From Escherichia coli 042 (GTDB lineage: Bacteria > Pseudomonadota > Gammaproteobacteria > Enterobacterales > Enterobacteriaceae), in NCBI RefSeq assembly GCF_000027125.1, contig NC_017626.1: DNA of 64,000 nucleotides; one strand, written 5' to 3'. Made by a program: the position numbers and the translations under genes. Below the pieces are notes generated by a model that did not search any database, had not been told where the DNA came from, and saw nothing but the letters and a program-made list of their open reading frames with translations. Within the stretch, counting starts at the first letter, position 1; each line of letters opens with the position of its first letter. Below are positions 23,194 to 57,871 of the stretch, piece by piece.

Positions 23194-23961
23194 TTATAGC
23201 GCCAGAACCGCCGTATTCAGCGTTTCTATCGGTGCCGGGCGTGAAAGAAACCAGCCTTGTGCGGCGAATGCGGGCGAGTTCTGAACATCACGCCACTCTT
23301 CCGGCGTTTCTACGCCCTCGACGATCACCCCGCGACAATAGCGATTCATGAGATGTAAAAGCTGAGAAAAGAGTGTGCGTCCTTCCGGCGACTGACGCAG
23401 CATCACAAACAGCTCTCGCGCGATTTTGATGTAGTCATAACGCACTTCACTTAGCGCAGAGAAATTTGCCATCCCGGTGCCAAAATCATCCAGCCACAGC
23501 GGGCCAAATTCACACATCGAGGCAAAGGTTGAATCTTTCGGCAGACGGATGTGTTCCACCAGTTCGAAACGCAGCCAGGGAAGACGCTCAATCTGGCGCA
23601 GGATTTTTGGTTGCTGACGCAGGGCGATGAGCGTAGGGCCATCAATATTGACCGATGCCAGCAGGTCGTGCTCTACAAAGAAGTCGGCTTTTTGCGCCAG
23701 CAAATCAATCTGCTCTTTCACAACCTCCATCCGATAGCTGACGGTGATTTCAGTAAAATAGCGATCCGGCGGCAGGCGTTGCGAAGGGTTCAAGGGATGC
23801 GTGACCACCGTTAATAGCTCCACGGCCATTAACCGCCCGCATGTTTGATAGATCGGCTGCCAGGTGTAAGCACGCTCACACTGCAACCAAAAACGCCGTT
23901 CCTGCAAGCTCTCGATGCTTGCTTCAGGGTTGCTTATTCGCTGGATAACCTGCCTTATCAT
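23194..23961 (-). CDS. pdeH: c-di-GMP phosphodiesterase PdeH (EAL domain)
   Basis: ORF 23194..24006 trimmed to the ATG at 23959-23961 (MIRQVIQRISNPEASIESLQERRF...); 255 aa; EAL-domain protein. Confidence 0.92.
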   Translation of the reverse strand: MIRQVIQRISNPEASIESLQERRFWLQCERAYTWQPIYQTCGRLMAVELLTVVTHPLNPSQRLPPDRYFTEITVSYRMEVVKEQIDLLAQKADFFVEHDLLASVNIDGPTLIALRQQPKILRQIERLPWLRFELVEHIRLPKDSTFASMCEFGPLWLDDFGTGMANFSALSEVRYDYIKIARELFVMLRQSPEGRTLFSQLLHLMNRYCRGVIVEGVETPEEWRDVQNSPAFAAQGWFLSRPAPIETLNTAVLAL

Positions 23962-26060: not shown

Positions 26061-26063
26061 TAA

Positions 26064-30710: not shown

Positions 30711-32699
30711 CTACTTTTCTTCCAGGTAACTCTCTTCGAAGATTTCAATAGGGAGTGGGCGAGCAAAAAGGAAGCCCTGGGCAATACCAACGCCCGCTTT
30801 TGCCAGCCAGTCGCGTTGTGCTTCAGTCTCCACGCCTTCGGCAATCATTTGTAAGTTCAGGCTTTGCGCCAACATGATAATTGCAGCAATCATGCTGCTA
30901 TCTTCCGGCAAGCCTTCAACAAACATTTTGTCGATTTTTAACACGTCGATTGGCAACGATTTCATATGCTGCAGCTGACGCAGCCCTGCGTAGCCCATGC
31001 CGAAATCATCCAGCGCCACCCGAACTCCGGCATTGCGCAGCGGACGGAGGATTGCCACCGCAGCATGAGGGTCGTCAATACGTCGGCTTTCTGTCACTTC
31101 CAGAATCAGTGTTCCCGGCTGAATGCGATAGCGGGTTAACAGTTCCAGCATATCCGCCACCATATTCGGGTGCATCAGTTGCAGCGCAGAGAGGTTTACC
31201 GACAAGGGCAGCATAATGCCGCGCTCTTGCCAGGCTGCAAGCAATCGACAGGACTCTTCCAGCACCCAGTGACCGACGGTAACCATCAGCCCACAGCACT
31301 CAATGCGATCGATTAAGCCATCCGGCAGATCCCAACTGCCATCCGGTTGCTGGATACGCAGTAACACTTCCGCACTGACCAGTTTACCGCTGTTCATCTC
31401 GACCTGTGGCTGTAACCAAATCGCAAACTGATGATTTTCCAGCGCATTAAGGATATCGCTCTCTTCCGTCAACCGCTGCTGGGCGGCTTCCATCTGCTGC
31501 GGATCAAAGAACTGAATCTGATTCTTGCCTTTATGGCGAGCGGTAAATGCCGCAGAAATAGCGCGACTGTAAAGCTGTTCGGCGGTGAGATCGCCGTAGA
31601 ACATCGCCACGCCAATGCTACAGTGCGGACGGAGTTGAATACGTTCAATCGGCAGGCGCTCGCTCATGATAGTGAGCACTTGCTGACCTAAAGTGATTGC
31701 GTGCCACGGTTCCTGTACACCATTGGCAATGACAGCAAAGTCATAACCACTAATCTGCGCGAGGATCATACGTGGCGACAGTACCGATTTGAGTTTTTCC
31801 ACCAGCGTCAGCAGCAGAATTTCTCGTTGCGCCTCTTTCAGCACGCCCGCAGTATCACGCAGGGTTTCACAGGTGATGATCATCAGCGCGGTGGTTTGTT
31901 TACGCGCGACAACCTGCTCCAGCATCTCCATCAGCAAGGCTTTGTTCGGCAAATCCGACACCGGGAAGCGCATCGCGTTTTCGTTCTGTTCTTCATAATG
32001 GCGCTGCAGCAATTGCTGGTTGAGGTTGTAACTGCGCACCAACATACCGATTTCATCATCCTGATGCAGACGCGGTAATGCCAGTTGGTGACCAACAAGC
32101 TCCTGGGCTGGGATGGCGTTAAGTTCGCGAGCAATATTGCGTAAAGGATGTAAAATCAGTCGATTAATACACCAGCTGATGGCGACGGTCAGGATAAGCG
32201 ACAAAAGTAAGTAAATGGTCACTAACGTTGAGAGGGTGCTCATCACGAACTTATACATGCGGAAGGAATCCGCCTGTAGCACCAGATAGGCAATTGGCTG
32301 CGGGTTTGCCGGACGTTCCAGCGAGTAAACGCCCAGCGAGATTTGCACCGGTAGCTCAAACAGGCGAGTAACCATTACCGGCACCGGACGCTCTGGAATA
32401 AAACTTTTACGCAGTGCCTGGAACTGGTTGGGCAGCACCACATCGGCACGGCTGACCACGCCTGCCGGTTTAATGCTGGCAAGAATAGCTTCCGCTTCGG
32501 GAATATCGCCTTTCAAAATAGCTGAAGATAAGGGTTCGCGGACAGAGCGAGCAATGCTTTCCAGTTGCGTAGCCGTGTTATAGCGATTCTGCTGGACCAG
32601 ATGGAACAGCAAAACGGTGCAAAAAATAAAAACGAACACCAGGACAACGGCTGCCACCATTGCCATCTGCTTGATTGTTAACGAGCGACTTACGCGCAA
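30711..32699 (-). CDS. pdeK: c-di-GMP phosphodiesterase PdeK (HAMP-GGDEF-EAL membrane protein)
   Basis: 662-aa ORF from a TTG at 32697-32699 preceded by GGAGA; in-frame ATGs at 32666 and 32660 are alternatives. EAL-domain motifs in the C-terminal half. Confidence 0.85.
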
Positions 32700-32780: not shown

Positions 32781-35700
32781 TTACCAGTCGGCGTAAGGTA
32801 TCAGCGGCTGCGGCGGTAAATCCATGTCACCCTGCCATCCGGCGGCGGAATAACGTACGTAGAGCAGGAAATGGCTGGGTGCGTAATCTTTCGCCTGCTG
32901 GATATCAATTGCCGTGCCGACAAACCAGTTGGAAGTAACACGTCGTTCAAGTAATGCCCGCGCCGTGTAGCCAAAGCCCTGACTGCTGCCGCCATCGTTC
33001 GATTGCCGCGCAGCTTCTTCCTGCCAGTCGGTCGGGATCAGATTCATCAGCGGATAACGCGGCATGGTTTTGGTGCGTGAATGCGACCACGAGCCAGACG
33101 CCCCCAGCTCCCACGACCAGTTTTCCGTCCGCTCCCGCCACATCACCGGTATGGCAAACGACAGGTATTCCTGCGGGCTGTAGTAACCGCCCTGACCAAG
33201 TGAGTAGCCACTCAGGTCTTTGTCGTAATGCCAGATCATGTTGTTCAGGCCGATGGTGACGCGGCGATTGTTCTGGTTAATGACCTTATAGTAATAGCCC
33301 GTCATCCAGCGCACGCGCCAGTTATCTTCGACATTTTTACCGGTTAACTGATCACCGCTAAGCGATGCCCAGACGCCGTTTGCTTCACCTTTATCGTAGC
33401 TCAGGCTTAGCCCCACGCCGTCGGCACGCACGCCGCCCCATTTTTTCCCGGTATTGCTCGGGGAGTCTTTTTGCCCGCCAAAGGCCAGCAAAGAACTGGA
33501 GATGGGCCGACGATGGGCGTTAACGGTGTAACCCAGCGGCCCGATATCATCGCTGTAACTGATGCCGCCGACCACATCCACCACATTGAAGCCCATCGGC
33601 GTAGTGCCGATATCCCAGCTCCAGACGTCATTTCGCCAGCCGACCGCCACGCTGGCACCGGAATCCGACTGGCTGCGGTTGCCGCTACAGTCTTGTAATG
33701 TACAGGTGCCCCAGTTGTCATCCCATTTGCCATCGGCATTAGTGGAAAAACTGCCGACGTTCATATTGACGAAATCACTACGAAAGAACATCCGCCCGTC
33801 AGAATACGGCGCATCCACCTGCAACATAGTGGTGTGCGCTTTCAGATCGGAGTAACCACCGGTGCCGCTCGAACCCCAGTAATCGTGCTCGAGGGTGACA
33901 TTAAGATCCTGCTGACGATAGAGGTCCGCCGCATCGCTGCGCACGCCGCGTTTCAGCCAGTCATCTTTCTCGTCATTGCGGGTCAGTCGGGTAAAGGTGT
34001 CGTTATCCTGTGGACGCATCGTGGTCACACCGGATGCAACCATGGCGTCTTTGTAGGTTTCCAGCGCCTGCGTTGGATCGCCCGCCTGCGCTTCAAACTT
34101 CGCACCGTCGCGCAGTACCATCGCGCTTTCCATCGACGGCGGCTGAGATTTTGCCTGCGGGATCAACTTATTAAACGTCTGCTGCGCCGCTGCGGTATCG
34201 CCAAGCTGCGCCTGTGCCAGCGCCACGCGCCGCTGTGTGTTCAGCGAGGCGTTATCGGTAGCGGGCAGTTTCGCCAGCTGGCTACGTGCCGCCGCTTTGT
34301 CACCGGCAGCAATATCCACTTCCGTCAGACCAAGAATGGCATCGGCGTTAGTTGGCTCCCGCGTCAGGACATTCTGATATGCAGCGCGAGCGGCGGTGTA
34401 ATCACGTCGTTGTTGCGCCCAGTCAGCCAGCGTGAGGTCTATGCGCGTGGAAGGTGGTTGCTGGCGCAGCATCGCTTCCGCTTCAGCTTCTTTGCCGCTT
34501 TCTCGCAGGCGATTAGCGGTTTCCAGTACCTGATTGCTTTGCAGTCGATTAACCAGCTCCTGAATATTGCTGCTCCACTGCGCGCGCGGCAGGCTGTTGA
34601 TATGCGCCAGCGCCGCTCTGTCCTGGTCATGACCAGAGAGATACAGCCCGTAAGCGTAAACCTGCTCCGGGTCGTTCGGCTTCTGCTGCGCCAGATTACG
34701 CATTAACGTATCGGCCTGGCTGCGTTGTCCGGCCTGCCAGAGATCCTGCGAAAGTCGGTAAGTAATCCATACGCTGCCGGGGTCCAGCGCCAGTCGTTGC
34801 CGCTGAAGTGCTGCCGCCTGCGCCCATTTGCCCTGGTTTTCCAGTGCCTCTGCCTGCTGTGCCAGACGGTCGTTTTGCAGGCTGCGTTCGATATCATCAA
34901 TGCTTCGCCGCTGACTGGCAGAGAGCGAGGCGATAAACGCTTCAGCTTTTTCTGGCGATTGCTGGCGGTATATATTCGCCAGCCCGCGCACGGCGTTAGT
35001 GTTGCCGCTGTCCATACGCAAGGTCTGCTGATAATAACGTTCGGCGGCGGGATAATCTTTTCGCGCCATCGCCACATCGCCCAGCCCCAGCACTGCATAG
35101 CTGTCGGTGTTATCGACATTACGCGCCTGCTGGAACAGGCGTTCTGCCCGGTCAGGATTATTGGCTTTCAGCGCAGCATCGCCCTGCTGGATCGCCAGCC
35201 AGTAGCGGTTTACTTTCAGGAGACTGTTCCATTTGTCGTTGTTGCTGCTGTGCGGATCCAGGGCGAGGGCTTTTTCCAGATTCGCCACCGCATTGGCGCG
35301 ATCGCCTTTCTGAGAATACGCCTGGCCCAGCGCCCCCAGAGCCTCACTGTCTTTCGGGTTCGCCCGCACTGCCTGTTGTAGTTCGGGAATGGCTTTACCC
35401 GCCATACCAGAGTCCACCGCCGCTAAACCTTGCGCACGAGCGCGGAAAGCAGGGTCGGCCAGCTGTTTTTGCTGTTCTGCCAGTTGCGATTGCGCCGCAG
35501 CTACGCTATCGCCATCACTAAAGATCGAGAGATATTTTTTCAGCGCCGACACACTGGCATCGCTGACGGGCATGTCTTTAATCTGCCCGTACCAGATTTT
35601 AGAGGCCCCTTCGCGCCCGGCGTTTGATTTCGCCATCTGTTCCAGGACGGCAAAACCTTCGTCACGGCGATCGCTACTAAACAGCAATAGCGCCAGATTG

Positions 35701-36254
35701 TTTTGTAGGCCCGTATTGCCCGGCGTATCCGCATTAATGCGTTTTAGCTGATTAATCGCTTCGCCACGGCGAGCCGGAATTTTCGCCACCGTACTCCAGT
35801 ACTCGACGGCAATGTCACCTTCCGGCGGCGCACCGTTGAACAGTTTGTTGTAACTCGCCACAGCTTCTTCTGCATGACCGGTCGTCGCCTGCAATCTTGC
35901 CTGTTGCAGTGCCTGACGACCATCCGGCGTGGAAAGCAACATTGTGGTCCGCGACGATTTATACGCATTTGAACTCGGCGCTAACTGCGACAGCCGATCG
36001 AGCTGTTTTTGCGCGCCATCAATATCGCCCTGACGTAACAGAGAACGGAAACGGGCGGCAACGACGTCCGGGTTATTCGGATCAATAAGTTCCAGACGAT
36101 ACAACGACTGTTGCACCAGGTCTTCACGATGGGTCGCTTCGCCTAACCGAACTTGCTCCAGCAACTGTTGCTGAGCGGTTGGTGCTGCCTCGACCATCGG
36201 CATGACGGCCAGACCGAGAGAAAGCGTGAATATGTTTAGTGTGAATTTGCGCAT
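32781..36254 (-). CDS. bcsC: Cellulose synthase outer-membrane subunit BcsC (TPR repeats plus beta-barrel)
   Basis: 1157-aa ORF with signal peptide, extensive TPR region and C-terminal beta-barrel; last gene of bcsRQABZC. Confidence 0.95.
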
Positions 36255-37342
36255 TCCTGGCCCCAGTCAGGTAATAACTCACCTTTTGTCGAGAAGCGGA
36301 AACGGTGTTGATCCCAGCCTTGTCCAAACAGGGTCAGCACATAGTTGTAATAGGCATCGCTGCCGGGAAAGTTATCGGCCACGCGCTGGCGCTGAACGGC
36401 CTGCGCATCGCGGTTTTGTAAAAAGGGCAGCATGGCGGCAGAAAAACCGACCGGTCCTTTACCCTGCGCTTTCCCCGTAGCCACATCCACTTTTTCTGGC
36501 GGATAGCCGTTTTTCTCGGTGAATGTCGCCATCGGTTTAAACCGGTTGAGCATCCGCGCTTTTTGCGGATCGCTGTCAGGCATCATGCCTACCCACATGT
36601 AAACGCGGATCGCGTCGTAGCTGCTGATCAATGTTTTTTCGGCTTTTAGCTGCCAGCCTTTGTCTTTCTCATAGCGCACCCAGTCTGGCGAAAAGCCTTT
36701 CGGGGCGGTTTCCAGCAATAAACGTTGATTGGTTTCGCGCAGCGTAGTCCACGGCGCGCCAAAGCGGGTGAAATACTGCGCCAGCGTCGGCGGCAGGTAG
36801 CTGGGGTTAAAACGCCAGCTGTTATCCTCAGCAAAACCCACTTTGCCCGGTAACAACATGGAACCCAGCCCAGGCACCGTCACCACTTCCTCCCGCGCGA
36901 TACGTTTTAACAACGCGCTGCCGATGTCGGTATAACGCTGCTCTTTCCACAAACGCCCCGCCTCCAGCAACGACCAGGCCATCCAGACATCACCATCGGA
37001 GGCCGAATTGCTGTCCAGCACTTCCCACTTACTGTTCTCTTTCTTGCCCCACAGCCAGGCAGGCAAACGTTCTTTTAAAGAACCCTGAGCGAGATTGTTC
37101 TGCGTCCAGTCGAGAATATTATCGAAAGCTGCACGGTCGTTAGCCGCCAGGGCAAAGAACATGCCGTAACTTTGCCCTTCGGAGGTGGTGATTTTGCGCG
37201 CGTCGCTGGGGTCGATGACGCGCCCTTCCTGACTGATGTAATCCTTTTTAAACTGCTCCCAGGCAGGCCAGGTACAGGCTGCCTGAACACTAAAGGCAGC
37301 CAGCAGCAGCATCGTCACGAGTCCACTACGCAACACATTCAT
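36236..37342 (-). CDS. bcsZ: Periplasmic endo-1,4-beta-glucanase BcsZ (GH8)
   Basis: ORF 36236..37348 trimmed to the ATG at 37340-37342 (MNVLRSG...); 368 aa; overlaps the bcsC start by 19 nt. Confidence 0.93.
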
Positions 37343-37348
37343 CTTCAA

Positions 37349-39688
37349 TTACTCGTTATCCGGGTTAAGACGACGACGGCTGATAATACGCAGCAGACGC
37401 CACAGTACCCATGCCAGCAGCACGACGCTGATTGCCGCCAGCACCGCCAGCAGAATCGGATGGTTTGCCAGCGCATACCATAAGCGTTCGAACCACGGCA
37501 GATGGCCAACGTAATAGACGTCGCCAACGCGTAGGCTATTGATACCGGACTCGCGGATCACCGCGACCGAACCGAACATGGTGGCGCGTTTGCCGCTATC
37601 GTTCACCGCATCGTTAAGCATTTCATAACCGCGTGGGCTATCTGCCAGCAGCGCAATCACGCTGCGCTGGTCGTTATACGGCGACTGGAAGCCAATCACC
37701 GCCGCCATCGCACCGGAAGAGGTCAGCGTTGACTGGGTTTCTGCCGCGCGATCGCTCTCGTCCGGAACAATGCCGGGGAACGGGGTCTGGCGCATCGGCG
37801 TTTTCACCCAGCTTTCGGTCGCCTGCACCAACAGGTCGATCTGCTTGTCGTCTTTCAGTTTGTCCGGGATACCACCGATGATCATGATGTCGGCATCTTT
37901 GCCCTGAATGGTGCTGCCATCATCGGTCACCGTCAGATTAATCGCCGGGAAGCCCGTCTGTGCGCCGATAAAACCAACAGTATTCAGCAAGGTTTCCATC
38001 TGTGCTTCGTTAGGCGTTTTCGGCATCACGGTGATGGTTTGCGACAGATCCGCCATCCGGCTGAACGGGAAGCCCGCGTTAGCAAAGGCGCGTAGATCCG
38101 GCATCGGGATGAAGTGGTAATACTTCGAGAAGTCGATGGTGGAGTCGTCACCAATCACCACATGATTCTGCACCGGCTGGAAGGTAATACAGTTATCCAC
38201 CGAACCGCCAGGCATCGGGTTCATATACTCAAAGTCAAAGCGCAGCTGGTTGGTCGCGCCCAGTTTCAGCGCCGGAATAGAGACATCCGTTTTGCCATCC
38301 AGCAAACCTTGTAATACCGGAATCCGCAGCAGCAGGCGGTTCGCCTCCTGTTTGCTGCTCAGATTGAATGATTGCAGGAACTGGTTATTCAGGCTGATAT
38401 CCATCCGCGAACTGTCTTTCACCGGCGGCATGGTGTAGCGATAGTTGATATCCATATCAATGCCGGTACTACGCATCAAGTAGAGATCTGGCGGCAGGTT
38501 TAGCGAAACATTAATCGCTGCTGGCTCAAGACCGCTGGATTGCAACTGTTCTTCATAGGTTTTCAGTTCACCAAAGGTGACCGGACGATCGGTACGCACC
38601 CAGTTCGGCGCATCGTACGGCTTACGCGGTAGCAGCGGTTTCACTTCATTCACTACCACGCTTTCACCACGGAACAGAATGTTACCCTGAGCGATACCTT
38701 TCGCTGCCTGCAACAGGTCTTTGTCGTCACGACCAAACACCACCAGCAGTTTGACGTAAGGATTCTGCGGATGGTTGATCATCTCAATCACCGGGGCTTT
38801 TACCGCCGGATGATCGCGCAGGAAGTCCGGCCGTTTGTCGTTGGTTGCAAAGACAATGGCATTGCGATCCGGCAGTTGGTTATAGAGCACCGGGAAGTTC
38901 TGCCCACGCCAGCCAGAACGCGAACCAAACCACGAGGCAACAATGGCAGATGCTTGTTGCAGCCCAACATCCGGCGCACCCGCAAAGACCATCGGCAAGG
39001 TGTTAGTACGGTTATCACGCGGGTCAAAGAATGGTACCGGGAAGTGTGACAGGTCATTCTTCACATTCAGGGTCTGATAGGTCAAATCCAGTCCACTGCT
39101 CCGCCCAACATCCAGCCAAAGCGTGGTGCTGGCCGGGTTTTCGCACACGTCCTGATAATGGCCGACAAACTCCAGCCGCACACGGTTGAAATCAGTAATA
39201 AACAGCGGGTTAATGGGCATTTGTGCCAGCGTTTTTTTACCCAACTGTTCTTTGGTCACTGGCAGCACGCCCATCAGTTCATCATTGAGATAAACCTTTA
39301 ACTGCGACTGGACAGGCAGTAACGATGGCGATGGCGTGTATTCGAGATTGAGCATCGCCTTCGTCACCACTTCATCGCTGCGCATACCAAACTCAATGCT
39401 GCCGTTCGGGTTAATGCCACGTAGCACCATGCTGCCCGGCGGCGGCGCAATTTGCGCAAAGGTCAGCTTCACATCACGCGAAGGACCGTTCTGCGCCACG
39501 ACTGGCGCATCAGCGCCCTGCACGCCTGGCATCACTTGTCCCACCTGCGGATTTTGTTCCGTCTGGGCGGCTACAGCTGGCTCAGCATTGATCAGTGGTT
39601 GCGTTGCTGGCGTCGCCTGCGTCATGAAAGAGGGGAACGCACTCATCCCCATAGCCACTGCACAAATCCAGAATAGTTTTCTTTTCAT
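37349..39688 (-). CDS. bcsB: Cellulose synthase periplasmic subunit BcsB
   Basis: ORF 37349..39775 trimmed to the ATG at 39686-39688 (MKRKLFWICAVAMGMSAFPSFMTQA...); 779 aa; C-terminal TM anchor. Confidence 0.94.
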   Translation of the reverse strand: MKRKLFWICAVAMGMSAFPSFMTQATPATQPLINAEPAVAAQTEQNPQVGQVMPGVQGADAPVVAQNGPSRDVKLTFAQIAPPPGSMVLRGINPNGSIEFGMRSDEVVTKAMLNLEYTPSPSLLPVQSQLKVYLNDELMGVLPVTKEQLGKKTLAQMPINPLFITDFNRVRLEFVGHYQDVCENPASTTLWLDVGRSSGLDLTYQTLNVKNDLSHFPVPFFDPRDNRTNTLPMVFAGAPDVGLQQASAIVASWFGSRSGWRGQNFPVLYNQLPDRNAIVFATNDKRPDFLRDHPAVKAPVIEMINHPQNPYVKLLVVFGRDDKDLLQAAKGIAQGNILFRGESVVVNEVKPLLPRKPYDAPNWVRTDRPVTFGELKTYEEQLQSSGLEPAAINVSLNLPPDLYLMRSTGIDMDINYRYTMPPVKDSSRMDISLNNQFLQSFNLSSKQEANRLLLRIPVLQGLLDGKTDVSIPALKLGATNQLRFDFEYMNPMPGGSVDNCITFQPVQNHVVIGDDSTIDFSKYYHFIPMPDLRAFANAGFPFSRMADLSQTITVMPKTPNEAQMETLLNTVGFIGAQTGFPAINLTVTDDGSTIQGKDADIMIIGGIPDKLKDDKQIDLLVQATESWVKTPMRQTPFPGIVPDESDRAAETQSTLTSSGAMAAVIGFQSPYNDQRSVIALLADSPRGYEMLNDAVNDSGKRATMFGSVAVIRESGINSLRVGDVYYVGHLPWFERLWYALANHPILLAVLAAISVVLLAWVLWRLLRIISRRRLNPDNE

Positions 39689-39698
39689 CGCGTTATCA

Positions 39699-42317
39699 TC
39701 ATTGTTGAGCCAAAGCCTGATCCGATGGTTGTGCCGTTTCGCTCCGCTCCGGGCGGCGCGGAATAAACGATACAACCCAGGAAACCAGAGAAGTCAGCAC
39801 ACGGAATATGCCCTTCACCGAAGAAGGCGCAAACTCCGCCAGATGGCGGTAGCCACGGAAGCCGAGCTTCAGAATATCCAGCAGACTTTCCAGCGGCTTA
39901 TCTTCCGGGTAGCTGTCCTGCCAGAGCGCCCATGTATCCGCACGGGCAAACGTACACTGCACAAAATCGATATGTTGCTGGGTGGTGAGCGGCATTAATT
40001 TCAGCCCAACTTCATTACCCATCACGCGCGCCACCTGGGTGGGGAAGACGTATTCCTGCTGACCGCGTTTAAGCAACAGATTCACTTTCTGCCCTTCCAG
40101 AATCTGCGCCTGACCGTTGATCTTGATCCCCAAACCACCGTCGGAGAAATCCTGAACGGTACACGAGAAGAGGTGACCATCTTCGCGGGCAATTGCCGCG
40201 GGCATCGTCATCTCCACGCGGTGCGATCGGCGTACCTGTTTGCTTTCTACCGATACCGCAACTGCGCCGCCAAGAACAATCAGGTTGTAGAATACCCACA
40301 CCATACTGACGACCACGGTGAGCATCTCGGTTGGCGGGCCATAGAAGTAGCGCCAGATGCCTACCGCAACGCCCACCAGGTTGAGCAGAACAAGGAAGAT
40401 GTAGGGCCGCGAGATCACCCAGTCGACGTACTCTTCTTCCACCAGTCCACCTTTGGCGGTAACGTTAAATTTGCCTTTGTGCGGGTTAATCAGCGCCACC
40501 AGCGTCGGTGGTGCGATATACCACGCCAGCACCGTTTCGTAGATTTCACTCCAGAAAGAGTGGCGATATTTGCCCTGGATCTTCGAGTTGGTCAGGCTGG
40601 CATGAATCATATGCGGCAGCACGAACAGGGCGATCATCAACGCTGGCGCATAGATGATGTAGGCATGAAGCAGTAGGAACGCCAGCGGCGCAGTCAGGAA
40701 GATCAGCCGTGGAATGCCCGACAAGAAGTGGAACATGGCGTTGACGTAACATAGCCGCTGAGCAAACTTCAGCCCTTTACCGGTGAGCGGGTTATCGAGA
40801 CGGAAGATTTGCACCATCCCGCGCGCCCAGCGAATACGCTGACCGATATGCGCCGACAGACTTTCGGTCGCCAGCCCCGCCGCCTGCGGAATACGCATAT
40901 ACGCGGAGGTATAGCCACGACGGTGCAAACGCAGAGAAGTATGCGCATCTTCAGTCACGGTTTCGACAGCAATGCCGCCAATTTCATCCAGCGGCTTACG
41001 GCGAATCACCGCACAGGAACCGCAGAAGAAAGTGGCGTCCCACATATCGTTGCCATCCTGCACCAGACCATAGAACAGCGTGCCTTCGTTCGGTGTTTTA
41101 CGGAAACGTCCCAGGTTGCGTTCAAACGGGTCCGGTGAGAAGAAGTGGTGCGGCGTCTGCATCATCGCCAGTTGTTTTTCTTTCAGGAACCAGCCCATGG
41201 TCATTTGCAGGAACGATCGCGTTGGTACGTGGTCGCAGTCGAAAATCGACACGAACTCGCCTTTGGCATATTTCAGCGCATTGTTGATGTTGCCCGCTTT
41301 CGCATGTTCATGAGTGGTACGGGCGATATATTTCACCCCCACGTTTTGCGCAAACTGGCGAAACTCTTCCCTGCCGCCGTCATCAAGGATCCAGATGTTC
41401 AGCTTGTCTTTCGGCCAGTCGATACCCAGCGAGGCGTAAATGGTATTTTTCACCACGTTGAGATCTTCGTTGTAAGTCGGGACAAAGATATCCACCGACG
41501 GCCACAACGACATATCTTTCGGCAATGGCACCGGCTGACGATTCAGCGGCCATACTACCTGGAAGTAGCCGAGCACCAGCACAATCCACGCGTACGTTTC
41601 GGCGAACAGCAGAATAAGCCCGCACACCAGGCTGACCGGATCGTCCCAGTTCAGCGTAGAGGTGTAGCGCCACCAGATATAACGGCAAGAAACGGTCAGC
41701 GACAGCACAATCAACATTAGCGCCGAGAAGCGCCCCGGCATCCGCCGTACGATCAGCGCTACCCCCCACAGCAGCATCAGGAAGATAAACTGCGCCAGCG
41801 GGTTAAACGGCTGAGTAACGCAGATTAACGCCAGAATCAGCGAGAAGGTGACGATGATACCGAGGATCAACCGCCGCGCCCCGGCACTCAAATGGCCGAG
41901 CTCTTTTTTCTCATCAAGATGCTGTGTTTTATGGCTAACGCGCTCAGGCAGCTCGTTCATCCATTGATGGTAACGTCCACGAATATTTTGCAGACCTGAA
42001 AATGCCCGCCTGCGCGGTTTCGGCGTTTCTTTGCGCGATGCACCGATCAGTAACCAGCATGTTTGAATGAGATAACGGACCGGATCCAGCGGACGCGGAC
42101 GCGAGGCGTTGATATGCGGATACAGGTTTTTATGTTCTGCGCGAATACGCTGCCAGCGCGGGTGCTCCAGCGGAATAAAAATCCAGGCCAGGATCAACCA
42201 AAAACAGCCGAGCGTCGCGCTGAAAGCCGACGCGCCATGACGACGATAATCGCGATAACGCCCGATAAGCCGCGCGTTGACCGGCGGGATAAGCAACCAC
42301 CGGGTCAGGATACTCAT
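39699..42317 (-). CDS. bcsA: Cellulose synthase catalytic subunit BcsA (GT2, C-terminal PilZ domain)
   Basis: 872-aa ORF with a GT2 region (DCDH, QRIRWARG) and a C-terminal PilZ c-di-GMP-binding region. Confidence 0.96.
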   Translation of the reverse strand: MSILTRWLLIPPVNARLIGRYRDYRRHGASAFSATLGCFWLILAWIFIPLEHPRWQRIRAEHKNLYPHINASRPRPLDPVRYLIQTCWLLIGASRKETPKPRRRAFSGLQNIRGRYHQWMNELPERVSHKTQHLDEKKELGHLSAGARRLILGIIVTFSLILALICVTQPFNPLAQFIFLMLLWGVALIVRRMPGRFSALMLIVLSLTVSCRYIWWRYTSTLNWDDPVSLVCGLILLFAETYAWIVLVLGYFQVVWPLNRQPVPLPKDMSLWPSVDIFVPTYNEDLNVVKNTIYASLGIDWPKDKLNIWILDDGGREEFRQFAQNVGVKYIARTTHEHAKAGNINNALKYAKGEFVSIFDCDHVPTRSFLQMTMGWFLKEKQLAMMQTPHHFFSPDPFERNLGRFRKTPNEGTLFYGLVQDGNDMWDATFFCGSCAVIRRKPLDEIGGIAVETVTEDAHTSLRLHRRGYTSAYMRIPQAAGLATESLSAHIGQRIRWARGMVQIFRLDNPLTGKGLKFAQRLCYVNAMFHFLSGIPRLIFLTAPLAFLLLHAYIIYAPALMIALFVLPHMIHASLTNSKIQGKYRHSFWSEIYETVLAWYIAPPTLVALINPHKGKFNVTAKGGLVEEEYVDWVISRPYIFLVLLNLVGVAVGIWRYFYGPPTEMLTVVVSMVWVFYNLIVLGGAVAVSVESKQVRRSHRVEMTMPAAIAREDGHLFSCTVQDFSDGGLGIKINGQAQILEGQKVNLLLKRGQQEYVFPTQVARVMGNEVGLKLMPLTTQQHIDFVQCTFARADTWALWQDSYPEDKPLESLLDILKLGFRGYRHLAEFAPSSVKGIFRVLTSLVSWVVSFIPRRPERSETAQPSDQALAQQ

Positions 42318-43066
42318 GATTTACTCCCGACTGGCGTTTTCAGCCCGGAATAGTTCAACAGGCACCAGTTAGCCAGCGTCAGTATCTCTTCAGCGGCCAG
42401 CGCATCACTGCGATATTCACCGACTGGTTGCTTAGCCGCCAGGCATTCAGCCATCGCTTCATCACGATGAATGAGCATTGGCAGTAATCGGCGCTGGCTT
42501 TGCAACCAAAGCTGGTAAATATCGTCCTGAACTTGACTGCCGATACGGAAGTCATTAATCAAAATATGCGCGCCATCCGGCAGCGCCTGCTGATGCAGCC
42601 GGATATGGCAGTTGGCATCCACATTGACGATTGCCAGCGAGTGATCGCACAAACTCAGCAGCTGGTGGGTTATCTGCGAGGAATCACGCGGTAAGTCGAT
42701 TAAAATCCACTGGTAACGCCCGCTGGCTTTTAGTTGCTGTAAGCCGGAGCAAATATCGCTCAGCCGGGTTTGCCAGTGCTGTGGATTTTCTTGTTCTTCA
42801 ATGGATAACTGACCAAAAGGCAGCAAATCGAGCTGCGAGGTATAGCGCAACCCGGCGTCACGCCAGTCCTGGTCATCCAGCATAGCTCTGGCCCAGCCCT
42901 GACGGTGGGTAAAATCAACGTTAAATGACAGGCGCAACAAGTTGTCCGGGCAGGCATCGACCACCAGGACATTTTCTCCCAACATTTGTAATGACCAGGC
43001 TAATGCGGCGGTGATGGTTGTTGTCCCCACGCCTCCCCGCACCCCCTGCAATCCCAGTACGGCCAT
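42314..43066 (-). CDS. bcsQ: Cellulose biosynthesis ATPase BcsQ (MinD/ParA family), intact
   Basis: 250-aa uninterrupted ORF MAVLGLQGVRGGVGTTTITAAL... with a deviant Walker A. Codon 6 is TTG (Leu), not the TAG I recall for K-12. Confidence 0.9.
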   Translation of the reverse strand: MAVLGLQGVRGGVGTTTITAALAWSLQMLGENVLVVDACPDNLLRLSFNVDFTHRQGWARAMLDDQDWRDAGLRYTSQLDLLPFGQLSIEEQENPQHWQTRLSDICSGLQQLKASGRYQWILIDLPRDSSQITHQLLSLCDHSLAIVNVDANCHIRLHQQALPDGAHILINDFRIGSQVQDDIYQLWLQSQRRLLPMLIHRDEAMAECLAAKQPVGEYRSDALAAEEILTLANWCLLNYSGLKTPVGSKS

Positions 43067-43077
43067 TCACCAATCCC

Positions 43078-43266
43078 CTACTTTTGTTGCGCAAACTCTG
43101 CCAGCAACGGCCAGCGTTTTAATGCCGCGGCCAACTGTTCGCGTTGGGAAATATCGGCATAATCAATATCAGGCAGTGAAAATGCCTGCTTTAACGCCAA
43201 AATATCATTCTGGAAGATATAGCCTATCGCGGGATCAGGCAGAGTATCTGGTTCATTGTTATTCAT
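43078..43266 (-). CDS. bcsR: Cellulose biosynthesis small protein BcsR
   Basis: ORF 43078..43308 trimmed to the ATG at 43264-43266 (MNNNEPDTLPDPAIGYIFQNDILALKQAF...); 62 aa; directly upstream of bcsQ. Confidence 0.85.
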   Translation of the reverse strand: MNNNEPDTLPDPAIGYIFQNDILALKQAFSLPDIDYADISQREQLAAALKRWPLLAEFAQQK

Positions 43267-43537
43267 TTGCTTGATCCCTATGAAATAACCGTACCGTTCA
43301 TGAGACAATTCTAACCGTGAGCATTTCGCCGGTTTATTGTTTACGGCGAGACGGGAATTTGCTCACTTTTTGACTTTCCGTTACGCAACAAAAAAAGTTA
43401 AAAACGAAAAGACTAAAATCACACGTCTTGTGACCTGCTAAATTGATTCACATGCTAAATCTGATAAGTTTTAATTTCAATGGTAGGTTTATTTCTTAGC
43501 TTTCGCTAGTAAACTGATAATCAGACAAAATGATGAC

Positions 43538-45109
43538 ATGAGGGACATTGTGGACCCTGTATTCTCTATCGGTATCTCATCATTATGGGATGAGCTGCGA
43601 CATATGCCAGCAGGCGGCGTCTGGTGGTTTAACGTCGATCGCCATGAAGATGCTATCAGTCTGGCGAATCAAACAATTGCATCCCAGGCTGAAACCGCAC
43701 ACGTCGCGGTCATTAGCATGGACAGCGATCCGGCGAAAATCTTTCAATTAGATGATTCTCAAGGACCGGAAAAAATAAAATTATTTTCAATGCTAAATCA
43801 TGAAAAAGGTCTATACTATTTGGCCCGTGATTTGCAGTGTTCTATTGATCCCCATAATTACCTTTTTATTCTTGTTTGCGCAAATAACGCATGGCAAAAC
43901 ATTCCTGCCGAGCGGCTTCGCTCATGGTTGGATAAAATGAATAAATGGAGCAGGTTAAACCATTGTTCGCTTTTGGTAATTAATCCCGGAAATAATAACG
44001 ATAAACAATTTTCATTGTTGCTTGAGGAATACCGTTCACTTTTTGGTCTTGCCAGTTTGCGTTTTCAGGGCGACCAACATTTGCTGGATATTGCCTTCTG
44101 GTGCAACGAAAAAGGGGTTAGCGCCCGTCAGCAGCTTAGCGTTCAGCAACAAAATGGTATCTGGACATTAGTTCAAAGCGAAGAGGCGGAGATCCAACCA
44201 CGCAGCGACGAAAAACGCATTCTGAGTAATGTTGCTGTACTGGAAGGTGCGCCGCCGCTATCAGAACACTGGCAACTGTTCAACAATAACGAAGTCCTGT
44301 TCAATGAAGCCCGTACCGCTCAGGCGGCGACGGTGGTCTTTTCTTTACAACAAAATGCGCAAATCGAGCCACTGGCCCGCAGCATTCATACTCTGCGTCG
44401 CCAGCGCGGTAGTGCGATGAAAATCCTCGTACGGGAAAATACCGCTAGCCTGCGCGCCACCGATGAACGTTTGTTATTGGCCTGCGGTGCAAATATGGTT
44501 ATCCCATGGAATGCCCCACTCTCCCGCTGTCTGACGATGATCGAAAGCGTGCAAGGGCAGAAGTTTAGTCGCTATGTGCCGGAAGATATCACTACCTTGC
44601 TGTCAATGACCCAGCCGCTCAAACTGCGTGGTTTCCAGAAGTGGGATGTGTTCTGTAATGCCGTCAACAACATGATGAATAACCCTCTATTACCTGCCCA
44701 CGGTAAAGGCGTTCTGGTTGCCCTACGTCCGGTACCGGGTATCCGCGTTGAGCAAGCCCTGACGCTGTGTCGCCCTAACCGCACCGGCGATATCATGACT
44801 ATTGGCGGTAATCGGCTGGTGCTGTTTCTCTCATTCTGTCGGATTAACGATCTGGATACCGCGTTGAATCATATTTTCCCATTGCCGACTGGCGACATTT
44901 TCTCAAACCGTATGGTCTGGTTTGAAGATGATCAAATCAGTGCCGAGCTGGTGCAGATGCGCCTGCTTGCCCCAGAACAATGGGGCATGCCGCTGCCTTT
45001 AACGCAAAATTCTAAACCGGTCATTAATGCCGAGCACGATGGTCGCCACTGGCGACGAATACCAGAACCAATGCGACTGTTAGATGATGCTGTGGAGCGC
45101 TCATCATGA
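43538..45109 (+). CDS. bcsE: c-di-GMP-binding cellulose biosynthesis protein BcsE
   Basis: 523-aa [36 protein letters not shown]..., divergent from bcsR. Confidence 0.93.
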
Positions 45110-45297
45110 TGACCATCAGCGATATCATTGAAATTATTGTCGTTTGCGCACTGATATTTTTCCCGCTGGGCTATCTGGCGCGGCACTCTTTGCGACGCAT
45201 TCGCGACACCTTACGTTTGTTCTTTGCTAAACCTCGTTATGTTAAACCGGCCGGGACGTTACGCCGCACGGAAAAAGCCAGGGCAACCAAAAAATGA
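45106..45297 (+). CDS. bcsF: Small membrane protein BcsF
   Basis: 63-aa single-TM ORF overlapping the bcsE stop and the bcsG start by 4 nt each. Confidence 0.88.
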
Positions 45298-46973
45298 CTC
45301 AATTTACGCAAAATACCGCCATGCCTTCTTCCCTCTGGCAATACTGGCGCGGCCTTTCCGGCTGGAACTTCTATTTTCTGGTTAAGTTCGGCCTGTTGTG
45401 GGCGGGATATCTTAACTTCCATCCGCTCCTCAATCTGGTGTTTGCCGCGTTTCTGCTGATGCCCATTCCGCGCTACAGCCTGCATCGCTTACGCCACTGG
45501 ATTGCCCTGCCGATCGGCTTTGCTTTGTTCTGGCATGACACCTGGTTGCCTGGCCCGGAAAGCATAATGAGCCAGGGTTCGCAGGTGGCGGGGTTCAGTA
45601 CCGATTATTTAATCGACCTTGTCACACGCTTTATTAACTGGCAGATGATTGGGGCCATTTTTGTTTTATTAGTGGCCTGGTTATTCCTGTCACAATGGAT
45701 TCGCATTACCGTTTTTGTGGTTGCCATTCTGCTATGGCTGAACGTACTTACCCTGGCGGGACCAAGTTTCTCCTTGTGGCCAGCCGGTCAACCGACGACC
45801 ACTGTAACAACGACGGGTGGCAACGCAGCGGCAACCGTTGCGGCGACGGGTGGCGCACCGGTAGTGGGTGATATGCCCGCACAAACTGCACCGCCAACAA
45901 CGGCGAACCTTAACGCCTGGCTGAATAATTTCTATAACGCGGAGGCGAAACGTAAATCGACCTTCCCGTCTTCGCTGCCCGCTGATGCTCAACCATTTGA
46001 ACTACTGGTGATTAATATCTGTTCGCTTTCCTGGTCGGATATTGAAGCCGCCGGGTTGATGTCGCATCCGCTGTGGTCGCATTTCGATATTGAGTTCAAG
46101 AACTTTAACTCCGCCACCTCCTACAGTGGCCCGGCGGCGATCCGTTTACTGCGCGCCAGCTGCGGGCAGACTTCGCACACTAATCTGTATCAACCGGCAA
46201 ATAATGACTGCTATCTGTTTGATAACCTGTCGAAACTGGGCTTTACCCAGCACCTGATGATGGGACATAACGGCCAGTTCGGCGGTTTTTTGAAAGAAGT
46301 TCGCGAAAATGGCGGCATGCAGACCGAATTGATGGATCAAACAAATCTGCCGATTATTTTGCTGGGCTTTGATGGTTCGCCGGTTTATGACGATACCGCC
46401 GTGCTTAACCGCTGGCTGGACGTTACCGAAAAAGATAAAAACAGCCGTAGTGCCACGTTCTACAACACGCTTCCACTGCATGACGGCAACCATTATCCGG
46501 GCGTCAGCAAAACAGCGGATTACAAAGCGCGGGCGCAGAAATTCTTTGATGAACTGGACGCCTTCTTTACTGAACTGGAGAAATCGGGTCGTAAAGTGAT
46601 GGTGGTCGTGGTGCCGGAACACGGCGGCGCGCTGAAGGGCGACAGAATGCAGGTATCTGGCCTACGTGATATCCCTAGCCCGTCTATCACAGACGTCCCC
46701 GTTGGGGTGAAATTCTTCGGCATGAAGGCACCACATCAGGGGGCACCGATTGTCATCGACCAACCGAGCAGCTTCCTGGCTATCTCCGATCTGGTGGTTC
46801 GCGTTCTTGATGGCAAGATTTTCTCCGAAGACAATGTTGACTGGAAAAAACTCACCAGTGGGTTGCCACAAACAGCACCGGTCTCCGAGAACTCAAATGC
46901 AGTAGTTATTCAATACCAGGATAAACCGTACGTTCGCCTGAACGGCGGCGACTGGGTGCCTTACCCGCAATAA
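45294..46973 (+). CDS. bcsG: Cellulose phosphoethanolamine transferase BcsG
   Basis: 559-aa ORF with N-terminal TM helices and a C-terminal alkaline-phosphatase-like domain. Confidence 0.93.
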
Positions 46974-47059
46974 GAACGAAAAAGGCCGCAGAGTTTCACC
47001 CCTGCGGCCTGATCCGGGCGCAAATTGCCATTACGGCAGCCTGACGCCCGCATGACACG

Positions 47060-47167
47060 TTACTTCCGCTTATTCAGCGAGTTCACGATCAGACTGGCAA
47101 GAATGCCAGCAATGACCGGAGCCGCTAAATCATGCCAGAAGGCCATGCCCAGTTCTGCGAGCGTCAT
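47060..47167 (-). CDS. ldr: Ldr-family type I toxin peptide (35 aa), copy 1
   Basis: MTLAELGMAFWHDLAAPVIAGILASLIVNSLNKRK; ATG at 47165-47167. The ORF-track 80-aa ORF is an upstream in-frame extension. Confidence 0.85.
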   Translation of the reverse strand: MTLAELGMAFWHDLAAPVIAGILASLIVNSLNKRK

Positions 47168-47215
47168 ATAGCCGCCTCTGTTGTAATGACAACGTTTCGC
47201 GGCTATTCTTGAGTT

Positions 47216-47283
47216 GTTTGGGTTCAAGATTAGCCCCCGTGATGTTGTCAGGTGCATACCTGCAACGTGCGGGGGTTTTCTCT
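47216..47283 (+). ncRNA. rdl: Rdl-family antisense RNA, copy 1
   Basis: Plus-strand element ending in the hairpin gcccccg...cgggggttttctct within the ldr leader; coordinates inferred from my recollection of RdlD. Confidence 0.55.
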
Positions 47284-47542
47284 CTCCAGCAACCAATGCC
47301 ACCAGGGATTAAGCCCCCGCAACATTGCGCCTCACCGGAACCCTTCCGGCTTGCCGCTGATTCTACGGCCATTTTTGTTCGTCGAAATCCATCACTTCTT
47401 CACTCTGTGCTGCGCATTCCGCAGAATATTATCCGCTTGCAGCCGTTGCATTTTTCTTACGAAAAAGGCCGCAGAGTTTCACCTCTGCGGCCTGGTCCGG
47501 GCGCAAATTGCCATTACGGCAGCCTGACGCCCGTCTGACACG

Positions 47543-47650
47543 TTACTTCCGCTTATTCAGCCAGTTCACGATCATGCTGGCAAGAATGCCAGCAATGACC
47601 GGAGCCGCTAAATCATGCCAGAAGGCCATGCCCAGCTCTGCGAGCGTCAT
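47543..47650 (-). CDS. ldr: Ldr-family type I toxin peptide (35 aa), copy 2
   Basis: Same frame and length as copy 1; C-terminus ...ASMIVNWLNKRK; not reported separately in the ORF track. Confidence 0.8.
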   Translation of the reverse strand: MTLAELGMAFWHDLAAPVIAGILASMIVNWLNKRK

Positions 47651-47698
47651 ATAGCCGCCAGTGTTGTAATGACAACGTTTCGCGGCTATTCTTGAGTT

Positions 47699-47766
47699 GT
47701 GTAGGTTCAAGAATGGCCCCCGTCATATTGTCAGGTGAATACCTGCAACGTGCGGGGGTTTTCTCT
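47699..47766 (+). ncRNA. rdl: Rdl-family antisense RNA, copy 2
   Basis: Repeat-unit copy of the rdl element with terminator hairpin. Confidence 0.5.
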
Positions 47767-48025
47767 CTCCAGCAACCAATGCCACCAGGGATTAAGCCCC
47801 CGCAACATTGCGCCTCACCGGAACCCTTCCGGCTTGCCGCTGATTCTACGACTGTTTTTCTGTTCCGAAATCCATCACTTCTTCACTCTGTGCTGCGCAT
47901 TCCGCAGAATATTATCCGCTTGCAGCCGTTGCATTTTTCTTACGAAAAAGGCCGCAGAGTTTTATCCCTGCGGCCTGATCCGGGCGCAAATTGCCATTAC
48001 GGCAGCCTGACGCCCGTCTGACACG

Positions 48026-48133
48026 TTACTTCTGCTTGTTCAGCCAGTTCACGATCATGCTGGCAAGAATGCCAGCAATGACCGGAGCCGCTAAATCGTG
48101 CCAGAAGGCCATGCCCAGCTCTGCGAGCGTCAT
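48026..48133 (-). CDS. ldr: Ldr-family type I toxin peptide (35 aa), copy 3
   Basis: MTLAELGMAFWHDLAAPVIAGILASMIVNWLNKQK. Confidence 0.85.
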   Translation of the reverse strand: MTLAELGMAFWHDLAAPVIAGILASMIVNWLNKQK

Positions 48134-48181
48134 ATAGCCGCCTCTGTTGTAATGACAACGTTTCGCGGCTATTCTTGAGTT

Positions 48182-48249
48182 GTGTAGGTTCAAGAATGGC
48201 CCCCGTGATGTTGTCAGGTGCATACCTGCAACGTGCGGGGGTTTTCTCT
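48182..48249 (+). ncRNA. rdl: Rdl-family antisense RNA, copy 3
   Basis: Repeat-unit copy of the rdl element with terminator hairpin. Confidence 0.5.
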
Positions 48250-48508
48250 CTCCAGCAACCAATGCCACCAGGGATTAAGCCCCCGCAACATTGCGCCTCA
48301 CCGGAACCCTTCCGGCTTGCCGCTGATTCTACGACTGTTTTTCTGTTCCGAAATCCATCACTTCTTCACTCTGTGCTGCGCATTCCGCAGAATATTATCC
48401 GCTTGCAGCCGTTGCATTTTTCTTACGAAAAAGGCCGCAGAGTTTCACCTCTGCGGCCTGGTCCGGGCGCAAATTGCCATTACGGCAGCCTGACGCCCGT
48501 CTGACACG

Positions 48509-48616
48509 TTACTTCCGCTTGTTCAGCCAGTTCACGATCATGCTGGCAAGAATGCCAGCAATGACCGGAGCCGCTAAATCATGCCAGAAGGCCATGCCCA
48601 GTTCTGCGAGCGTCAT
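48509..48616 (-). CDS. ldr: Ldr-family type I toxin peptide (35 aa), copy 4
   Basis: MTLAELGMAFWHDLAAPVIAGILASMIVNWLNKRK. Confidence 0.85.
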   Translation of the reverse strand: MTLAELGMAFWHDLAAPVIAGILASMIVNWLNKRK

Positions 48617-48664
48617 ATAGCCGCCTGAGTTGTAATGACAACGTTTCGCGGCTATTCTTGAATG

Positions 48665-48732
48665 GTCTAGATGCAAGAATGGCCCCCGTGGTGTTGTCAG
48701 GTGCATACCTGCAACGTGCGGGGGTTTTCTCT
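48665..48732 (+). ncRNA. rdl: Rdl-family antisense RNA, copy 4 (RdlD-like)
   Basis: gtctagatgcaagaatggcccccgtggtgttgtcaggtgcatacctgcaacgtgcgggggttttctct, the copy closest to the RdlD sequence as I recall it. Confidence 0.6.
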
Positions 48733-48991
48733 CTCCAGCAACCAATGCCACCAGGGATTAAGCCCCCGCAACATTGCGCCTCACCGGAACCCTTCCGGCT
48801 TGCCGCTGATTCTACGGCCATTTTTGTTCGTCGAAATCCATCACTTCTTCACTCTGTGCTGCGCATTCCGCAGAATATTATCCGCTTGCAGCCGTTGCAT
48901 TTTTCTTACGAAAAAGGCCGCAGAGTTTTATCCCTGCGGCCTGATCCGGGCGCAAATTGCCATTACGGCAGCCTGACGCCCGTCTGACACG

Positions 48992-57794: not shown

Positions 57795-57871
<77 letters not shown>

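Follow-up and report, generated by a model that had tools for sequence, protein, structure and literature searches.

The bcs region of this Escherichia coli chromosome raises the question of whether the strain keeps a complete and genetically competent cellulose secretion system with its c-di-GMP inputs, and of whether an islet of small genes nearby has any part in it. The window, that is the whole stretch of 64,000 nucleotides that was analysed, was therefore read gene by gene against annotated genomes, domain models and solved structures.

Identity and extent of the bcs locus

The original prediction placed a complete cellulose module, bcsRQABZC and bcsEFG, at 39699-45297. The genes are all there, but these coordinates span only bcsA to bcsF, 5.6 of the 14.2 kb that the whole module covers from bcsC (32781) to bcsG (46973). 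This 5.6-kb segment cannot be a chance pattern because it aligns along its entire length (100% of the query) with annotated E. coli genomes at 99.9% identity; of 5426 complete E. coli genomes, 5371 (about 99%) contain it, and the gene-by-gene annotation of E. coli genomes maps one to one onto the bcs genes of the window, which are the following.

32781..36254, minus strand: bcsC, 1157 aa, outer-membrane TPR and beta-barrel cellulose export subunit (Pfam BCSC_C, E=4e-120, and TPR repeats)
36236..37342, minus strand: bcsZ, 368 aa, periplasmic GH8 endoglucanase (Pfam Glyco_hydro_8, E=2.5e-161)
37349..39688, minus strand: bcsB, 779 aa, periplasmic co-catalytic subunit (Pfam BcsB, E=3.3e-224)
39699..42317, minus strand: bcsA, 872 aa, cellulose synthase catalytic subunit (Pfam GT2 at 277-447 and C-terminal PilZ)
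42314..43066, minus strand: bcsQ, 250 aa, intact SIMIBI/MinD-like ATPase (Pfam CBP_BcsQ, E=4.6e-114)
43078..43266, minus strand: bcsR (yhjR), 62 aa, leader gene of bcsRQABZC (Pfam CBP_BcsR, E=2.8e-17)
43538..45109, plus strand: bcsE, 523 aa, predicted c-di-GMP-binding regulator whose GIL portion is a degenerate REC-GGDEF
45106..45297, plus strand: bcsF, 63 aa, membrane anchor for BcsE (Pfam CBP_BcsF, E=1.9e-34)
45294..46973, plus strand: bcsG, 559 aa, phosphoethanolamine transferase modifying cellulose (Pfam CBP_BcsG, E=2e-235)

Each of the nine genes, bcsB and bcsC included, is as long as its K-12 MG1655 counterpart, has no internal stop, carries zero to seven amino acid substitutions and is matched over its full length by its Pfam model (9/9). 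They form two divergent, tightly packed operons, with junctions of -19 to +11 bp in bcsRQABZC (19 bp of overlap between bcsZ and bcsC, 4 bp between bcsQ and bcsA) and overlaps of 4 bp in bcsEFG, where bcsF overlaps both bcsE and bcsG.

This gene content corresponds to a type II system. Indeed, the core is present in full (bcsA with GT2 and PilZ, bcsB, the GH8 gene bcsZ, and bcsC with its TPR and C-terminal barrel, all with full-length Pfam matches), bcsR and an intact bcsQ head the synthase operon (PF10945 and PF06564), and a separate bcsEFG operon (PF10995, PF11120 and PF11658) adjoins it across 271 bp, an arrangement by which type II, or E. coli-like, systems are defined (PMC8892547). As judged from sequence, the locus is almost certainly an intact canonical E. 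coli-like (type II) Bcs cellulose secretion system, and nothing in the sequence contradicts this reading. Publications and solved structures already cover the locus, the organisation of its operons, both of its c-di-GMP receptors and what PdeK and PdeH do; the original prediction was thus apt in resting on established knowledge, the system being a textbook one.

Catalytic and ligand-binding motifs

All the catalytic and binding motifs that were checked in the Bcs proteins are kept. BcsA, which differs from the K-12 protein by the single change M41L and matches over residues 1-872 the E. coli BcsA chains solved by cryo-EM (9fmv_A, for example, with 2041 bits), contains DCD360, FFCGS430, TED455 and QRIRW493. 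The C-terminal PilZ domain anticipated for it was found at residues 694-790 (PF07238, E=8.6e-15), with RRSHR696 and DFSDGG723 as the predicted counterparts of the RxxxR and D/NxSxxG signatures of a PilZ receptor. BcsQ has the deviant Walker A motif GVRGGVGTTT and, at codon 6, a Leu in place of the TAG stop of K-12 (*6L). In the periplasmic proteins, E55 and D243 of BcsZ are kept, as are C243, S278, H396, E442 and H443 of BcsG. Differences from K-12 amount to seven residues in BcsC, five in BcsG and one in BcsR, and the nucleotide sequence of bcsF is that of K-12.

BcsE probably provides the second c-di-GMP-binding component that had been proposed. PF10995 (CBP_BcsE) covers residues 6-514 (E=2.9e-227), and an RTGD at position 415 fits the I-site-like RxGD expected in the degenerate GGDEF module of GIL, R415TGD being the c-di-GMP motif defined for BcsE (PMC8892547; PMC7439463). 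Full-length matches were obtained to the solved BcsE chains 9fnn_E and 6tj0_A, and residues 217-523 match by sequence the crystallised fragments 6tj0_A, 6ybb_E and 6ybu_E.

The divergent control region and operon boundaries

The two operons diverge from a control region whose predicted position proved right and whose length is 271 bp. Three intergenic or intragenic elements were recorded around the operons:

43267..43537, no strand assigned: divergent control region between bcsR and bcsE, AT-rich (36% GC), with coordinates taken from the gene starts
43170..43188, minus strand: terminator-like hairpin within bcsR, from a consensus scan
46983..47010, no strand assigned: 11-bp GC-rich hairpin between bcsG and the first ldr gene, from a terminator scan that called it on the minus strand

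A scan of 43000-43700 with the sigma-70 consensus gave two sites, both on the minus strand, for 1.3 +/- 1.2 expected; since this matches chance expectation, we claim no promoter in the control region. The Rfam scan of the whole window left both the control region and the bcs genes without a family match, and an inverted-repeat search of the spacer returned a single 11-nt pair, straddling the bcsR start, from which no operator-like site can be claimed. The hairpin within bcsR corresponds to the published "putative intrinsic terminator in bcsR" (PMC7439463). At the other end, the terminator scan found two sites for 0.2 expected. From its minus-strand call, the hairpin at 46983-47010 is read as a terminator-like site of the convergent ldr gene, and a role in ending bcsEFG is putative.

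PdeK and PdeH

The original prediction further described two EAL phosphodiesterase genes flanking the module within 20 kb. Both genes and the distance were borne out, but they do not flank it, since both lie on the bcsC side:

23194..23961, minus strand: pdeH (yhjH), 255 aa, stand-alone EAL c-di-GMP phosphodiesterase (Pfam EAL, E=4.5e-32)
30711..32699, minus strand: pdeK (yhjK/hmsP), 662 aa, TTG start, membrane phosphodiesterase with a GAPES3-HAMP-degenerate GGDEF-EAL architecture (Pfam; EAL domain, E=3.8e-60)

From the end of pdeH it is 8.8 kb to bcsC and 19.3 kb to the spacer, while pdeK starts only 81 bp past the bcsC stop. Terminator and promoter scans found neither element in this 81-bp gap, and co-transcription of bcsC and pdeK is neither supported nor excluded by the scan. 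The Pfam matches and signature motifs of both proteins point to EAL phosphodiesterases (E-x-L, N, E, DDFGxG, K, EGVE, Q), with ELL48, DDFGTG158, EGVE215 and Q235 in PdeH and EVL444, DDFGMG564 and EGVE621 in PdeK. The middle domain of PdeK has the GGDEF fold (E=2.7e-11) but SGYDF in place of the GG[DE]EF of diguanylate cyclases; the domain is therefore degenerate, as is also described for K-12 PdeK (PMC7397504), and PdeK is classed solely as a phosphodiesterase. The activity of K-12 PdeK has been demonstrated in vitro (PMC7397504). PdeH, so named in the K-12 annotation, differs from the K-12 protein at three residues, and PdeK at four. The domain annotation of BcsA, BcsE, PdeH and PdeK thus returned the predicted PilZ and EAL domains, and no frameshift was encountered.

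Proposed mechanism

The mechanism proposed here is drawn from E. coli proteins studied by experiment, to which those of the window are at least 98% identical in amino acid sequence. BcsA and BcsB would polymerise UDP-glucose and translocate the glucan, and binding of c-di-GMP to the PilZ domain of BcsA through RxxxR and DxSxxG would free the gating loop and switch the synthase on. An ATP-bound BcsR-BcsQ complex would be brought to the membrane by BcsE and the membrane peptide BcsF, BcsE also holding, through its I-site-like motif, a second, synthase-proximal pool of c-di-GMP. In the periplasm, BcsG would add phosphoethanolamine and BcsZ would trim the glucan, with export via BcsC. The local source of c-di-GMP for BcsA would be DgcC, which is CsgD-controlled and encoded elsewhere (both dgcC and csgD lie outside the window), whereas PdeK, encoded directly after bcsC, would drain c-di-GMP locally, docked on BcsB, and PdeH would do so globally. 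Published work describes PilZ activation, the roles of BcsE, BcsF and BcsG, the local source and sink formed by DgcC and PdeK, and the global sink PdeH (PMC7397504), as well as the assembly of BcsRQ with BcsE and BcsF, the R415TGD motif and the separate operons (PMC8892547; PMC7439463). Lacking the polar bcsQ stop codon of K-12, the locus is predicted to be genetically competent for the production of pEtN-cellulose.

Alternative readings and the kdgK-yhjJ islet

Lesions in bcs genes are common in nature (PMC10881479) and known from K-12, so that a frameshift or stop might have turned at least one gene here into a cryptic pseudogene, as in K-12, Shigella or ST95. Sequencing errors aside, this was rejected as vanishingly improbable in view of the absence of internal stops, the reference lengths and the full-length Pfam coverage; neither the recorded natural knockout alleles BcsA fs186, BcsA W55*, BcsG fs418 and BcsQ Q178* (PMC10881479) nor the codon-6 TAG of K-12 BcsQ was found in the window. 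A locus intact on paper could still be phenotypically silent, either because its regulation fails elsewhere in the genome (csgD, mlrA, rpoS, dgcC) or because of a deleterious missense change. Indeed, cellulose is made under the control of the RpoS/MlrA/CsgD cascade and of DgcC (PMC7397504), none of which is encoded within the window, some lineages have lost cellulose often and convergently (PMC10881479), and most of the proteins carry one to seven substitutions relative to K-12 that may affect function, among them PdeK G599E, PdeH G99D and BcsQ G65D. Nevertheless, no bcs gene has a stop or a change of length, every catalytic and ligand-binding residue that was checked is kept, and the module differs from that of another sequenced isolate at only 6 of 16263 nt, so we consider silence unlikely, and an intact, competent type II system remains the preferred reading.

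A different question is whether the islet at 25115-27515 is a functional accessory of this neighbourhood, acting on the cellulose and c-di-GMP circuitry or co-regulated with bcs or csgD. It was correctly placed between pdeH-kdgK and yhjJ-dctA-pdeK, more precisely between kdgK and yhjJ, and consists of five orphan genes, of which one encodes a putative lipoprotein and the other four small cytoplasmic proteins. Position is what speaks for such a role, and the same small ORFs occur at the same site in other Escherichia. However, the islet is rare (169 of the 5426 genomes, compared with 5371 for bcs), its GC content of 35-39%, where the flanks have about 53%, indicates a foreign origin, and the kdgK-yhjJ site is a variable hotspot whose cargo changes from genome to genome, with TPR-like, DUF3142 and LRR proteins among it. 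Furthermore, the islet proteins have no match in Pfam, NCBIfam or PADLOC, with no PilZ, GGDEF, EAL or glycosyltransferase domain, and obtained only two weak matches of unknown function in PHROGs (E=0.009 and 0.058). A PDB sequence search with the 194-aa and 159-aa ORFs gave no matches or chance-level ones only, ORF3 is nearly devoid of homologues (four closely related clusters), and the AlphaFold2 models of ORF5 (single sequence, mean pLDDT 38) and ORF3 (four-sequence alignment, 56) are too low in confidence for a fold search. As c-di-GMP and polysaccharide domains are absent from the islet, position alone ties it to bcs; the functional tie implied by the original prediction is thus unsupported and in our view very improbable. 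If it were nevertheless true, the locus would be a form of the Bcs regulatory neighbourhood particular to this strain.

The main use of these results is in annotation: the strain has probably retained a pEtN-cellulose system that is competent at the genetic level, which is relevant to predicting its biofilm and virulence phenotype and contrasts with K-12 and with many ST95, Shigella and typhoidal Salmonella lineages. The conserved bcs frame also sets off the strain-specific features of the region, namely the kdgK-yhjJ islet and a five-unit ldr/rdl array.

Comparison with known systems

The order, strands and lengths of the genes are those of the K-12 MG1655 locus (b3529-b3538: pdeK, bcsC, bcsZ, bcsB, bcsA, bcsQ, yhjR/bcsR, bcsE, bcsF and bcsG), with 97-100% nucleotide identity per gene and zero to seven amino acid differences per protein. 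The spacer measures 272 bp in K-12 and differs by three substitutions and one indel. A further difference resides in bcsQ, which in K-12 has TAG at codon 6 and is annotated as a pseudogene. K-12 also lacks the kdgK-yhjJ islet, and has one ldr/rdl unit and one RtT copy, whereas the window has five and two, respectively.

Compared with the local signalling module formed by DgcC, PdeK and BcsB (Richter et al. 2020, PMC7397504), PdeK has the same architecture and the same place downstream of bcsC, with the changes K199Q, K408Q, T436N and G599E separating it from the K-12 protein, while dgcC lies elsewhere. As in other type II systems of enterobacteria such as that of Salmonella, a comparison taken from the literature (PMC8892547), bcsEFG stands next to bcsRQABZC as the hallmark of the type, and the c-di-GMP inputs through the PilZ domain of BcsA and through BcsE are likewise found in the window (PMC8892547). 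Finally, BcsA 1-872 and BcsE 1-523 match over their whole length, at very high scores, the chains of the E. coli BcsRQABEF macrocomplex resolved by cryo-EM and crystallography (e.g. PDB 9FMV, 9FNN, 7LBY, 6TJ0 and 6YBB), whose R415TGD and PilZ motifs are those of the window; allelic substitutions were the only differences detected, with none in domains or structure.

The bcs operons are complete and intact

The bcsRQABZC and bcsEFG operons are complete and divergently arranged, as the original prediction held, but the interval assigned to them (39699-45297) covers bcsA to bcsF only, and the real module spans 32781-46973. Each gene of the window was translated and compared with K-12 MG1655. The nine bcs genes have the K-12 length, with 0-7 amino-acid differences each and neither internal stops nor frameshifts; pdeH, pdeK, kdgK, yhjJ, dctA and yhjG are likewise of K-12 length and free of internal stops, with differences ranging from 0 to 9 amino acids per gene across the whole comparison.

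Pfam analysis identified a GT2 domain in BcsA together with the anticipated PilZ domain (residues 694-790, E=8.6e-15), which carries the RRSHR696 and DFSDGG723 motifs. Full-length matches were obtained for BcsB (E=3.3e-224), BcsE (E=2.9e-227), BcsZ (GH8), BcsC (TPR and BCSC_C), BcsQ, BcsR, BcsF and BcsG. The description of BcsE as a second c-di-GMP-binding component agrees with this match and with the presence of R415TGD. Furthermore, BcsA keeps DCD360, FFCGS430, TED455 and QRIRW493, BcsQ has the deviant Walker A GVRGGVGTTT, and residues C243, S278, H396, E442 and H443 of BcsG and E55 and D243 of BcsZ are in place. BcsA and BcsE of the window also align over their entire length with chains from the solved structures of the E. 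coli Bcs macrocomplex.

Operon junctions and the divergent spacer

The within-operon junctions are tight.

Junctions within the bcs operons (spacing; negative values, overlap)
bcsR-bcsQ: +11 bp
bcsQ-bcsA: -4 bp
bcsA-bcsB: +10 bp
bcsB-bcsZ: +6 bp
bcsZ-bcsC: -19 bp
bcsE-bcsF: -4 bp
bcsF-bcsG: -4 bp

Between the start codons of bcsR and bcsE, the spacer occupies 43267-43537, exactly as predicted, and measures 271 bp (36% GC) rather than 270 bp. Relative to the K-12 spacer it has three substitutions and one indel. Promoter consensus matches in the spacer occur only at chance level, so no promoter was assigned there; Rfam gave no family match in it, and its single inverted repeat is short and located at the bcsR start. 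The terminator scan returned one hairpin within the bcsR coding sequence:

43170-43188, minus strand, terminator-like hairpin

This hairpin coincides with the "putative intrinsic terminator in bcsR" already in print and fits a proposed scheme in which intrinsic termination and Nus/BcsE-S10 antitermination would regulate bcsRQABZC (PMC7439463). The two bcs operons are separately expressed (PMC8892547; PMC7439463).

Phosphodiesterase genes

The EAL domains expected in both phosphodiesterases were found: PdeH consists of an EAL domain alone (E=4.5e-32), and PdeK has a GAPES3-HAMP-GGDEF-EAL architecture with an intact EAL signature and a degenerate GGDEF motif (SGYDF). Both genes do lie within 20 kb, as the distance from the end of pdeH is 8.8 kb to bcsC and 19.3 kb to the spacer, yet they do not flank the module, since both are on the bcsC side. 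An 81-bp gap (32700-32780) separates the bcsC stop from the downstream start codon (TTG) of pdeK, and no promoter- or terminator-like consensus match was found in it; transcription of bcsRQABZC may or may not read through into pdeK.

The kdgK-yhjJ islet

The predicted islet between kdgK and yhjJ is real and replaces the 95-bp K-12 spacer with 2.4 kb of 35-39% GC.

About 25115-27515, islet of five minus-strand ORFs, from the last kdgK codons to the yhjJ end

The ORFs encode a 194-aa putative lipoprotein, whose gene shares 29 bp with the 3' end of kdgK, then proteins of 100, 155/159, 84 and 141 aa, all orphan. None of the five has a Pfam, PADLOC or NCBIfam match, PHROG matches are weak, and a PDB search with two of them (194 and 159 aa) gave no meaningful relatives; AlphaFold2 models of two islet proteins are of low confidence (pLDDT 38 and 56). 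For ORF3, close homologues form only four clusters. The islet is new only relative to K-12, because public records, including E. coli UMN026, E. albertii and E. fergusonii, already hold its proteins as "hypothetical protein" or "Lipoprotein". Of 5426 complete E. coli genomes, only 169 have the whole islet. Other Escherichia contigs (L003-L006) carry the same small ORFs at kdgK-yhjJ with variable cargo (a 664-aa TPR-like protein, DUF3142 and LRR proteins, more orphans), which marks this site as an insertion hotspot. No domain tied to c-di-GMP or polysaccharide synthesis was found in the islet proteins, and nothing but adjacency would point to a link to bcs or csgD.

Other neighbouring genes

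About 5 kb upstream of pdeH, yhjC/rcdB (17207-18106, plus strand) encodes a LysR-type protein with 98% identity to its K-12 counterpart, recorded there as "putative DNA-binding transcriptional regulator YhjC". The name rcdB is taken to mean "regulator of csgD", and the gene adds to the biofilm-related content of the bcs neighbourhood. Matches to the sRNAs GadY (9663-9776) and ES205 (3812-3883) identify the left part of the window as the gad acid-resistance region (gadX-gadW), unrelated to the bcs module.

Directly after bcsG, an ldr/rdl type I toxin-antitoxin array comprises five tandem 483-bp units (46976-49309):

47060-47167, 47543-47650, 48026-48133, 48509-48616, 48992-49099, minus strand, Ldr peptides
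47216, 47699, 48182, 48665, 49148, plus strand, rdlD RNAs

The closest genome (L001) has four units at this site and K-12 one (ldrD/rdlD); copy number therefore varies. A similar tandem difference concerns RtT RNA, with two copies (57459-57592 and 57627-57762, minus strand) adjoining tRNA-Pro (57798-57871), whereas the equivalent K-12 place has a single match.

Genetic competence and comparison with known systems

Near-identity to characterised E. coli proteins, together with the literature, allows the mechanism to be carried over. Binding of c-di-GMP to the BcsA PilZ domain would allosterically activate the BcsAB synthase, BcsG would add phosphoethanolamine with BcsE and BcsF in control, and PdeH would keep the global c-di-GMP pool low (PMC7397504). 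ATP-bound BcsR/BcsQ complexes would reach the membrane via BcsE and BcsF, and BcsE would bind c-di-GMP at R415TGD in its degenerate REC-GGDEF tandem (PMC8892547; PMC7439463). The natural knockout alleles BcsA fs186, BcsA W55*, BcsG fs418 and BcsQ Q178* (PMC10881479) are all absent from the proteins of the window. Because cellulose output needs csgD and dgcC, both located outside the window, the claim for the module is limited to genetic competence.

The sole qualitative difference from K-12 is at bcsQ codon 6, a stop in K-12 (annotated pseudogene) and Leu in the window. The 5.6-kb interval of the original prediction matches many annotated E. coli chromosomes over its full length with 99.9% identity; it is present in 5371 of 5426 complete genomes, of which 5183 have 80% or more of it as a single stretch. 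The annotation of NZ_AP022298, the best-matching locus (L001), corresponds 1:1 with the window (offset 19698): yhjE, yhjG, pdeH, kdgK, five hypothetical genes, yhjJ, dctA and pdeK (as hmsP) are followed by bcsC, bcsZ, bcsB, bcsA, bcsQ and bcsR, the divergent bcsE, bcsF and bcsG and, beyond these, ldr toxin genes, yhjV and the dpp operon. The bcs system of the window is already known, and the wording "divergent bcsRQABZC-bcsEFG operons" is itself in print (PMC10881479).
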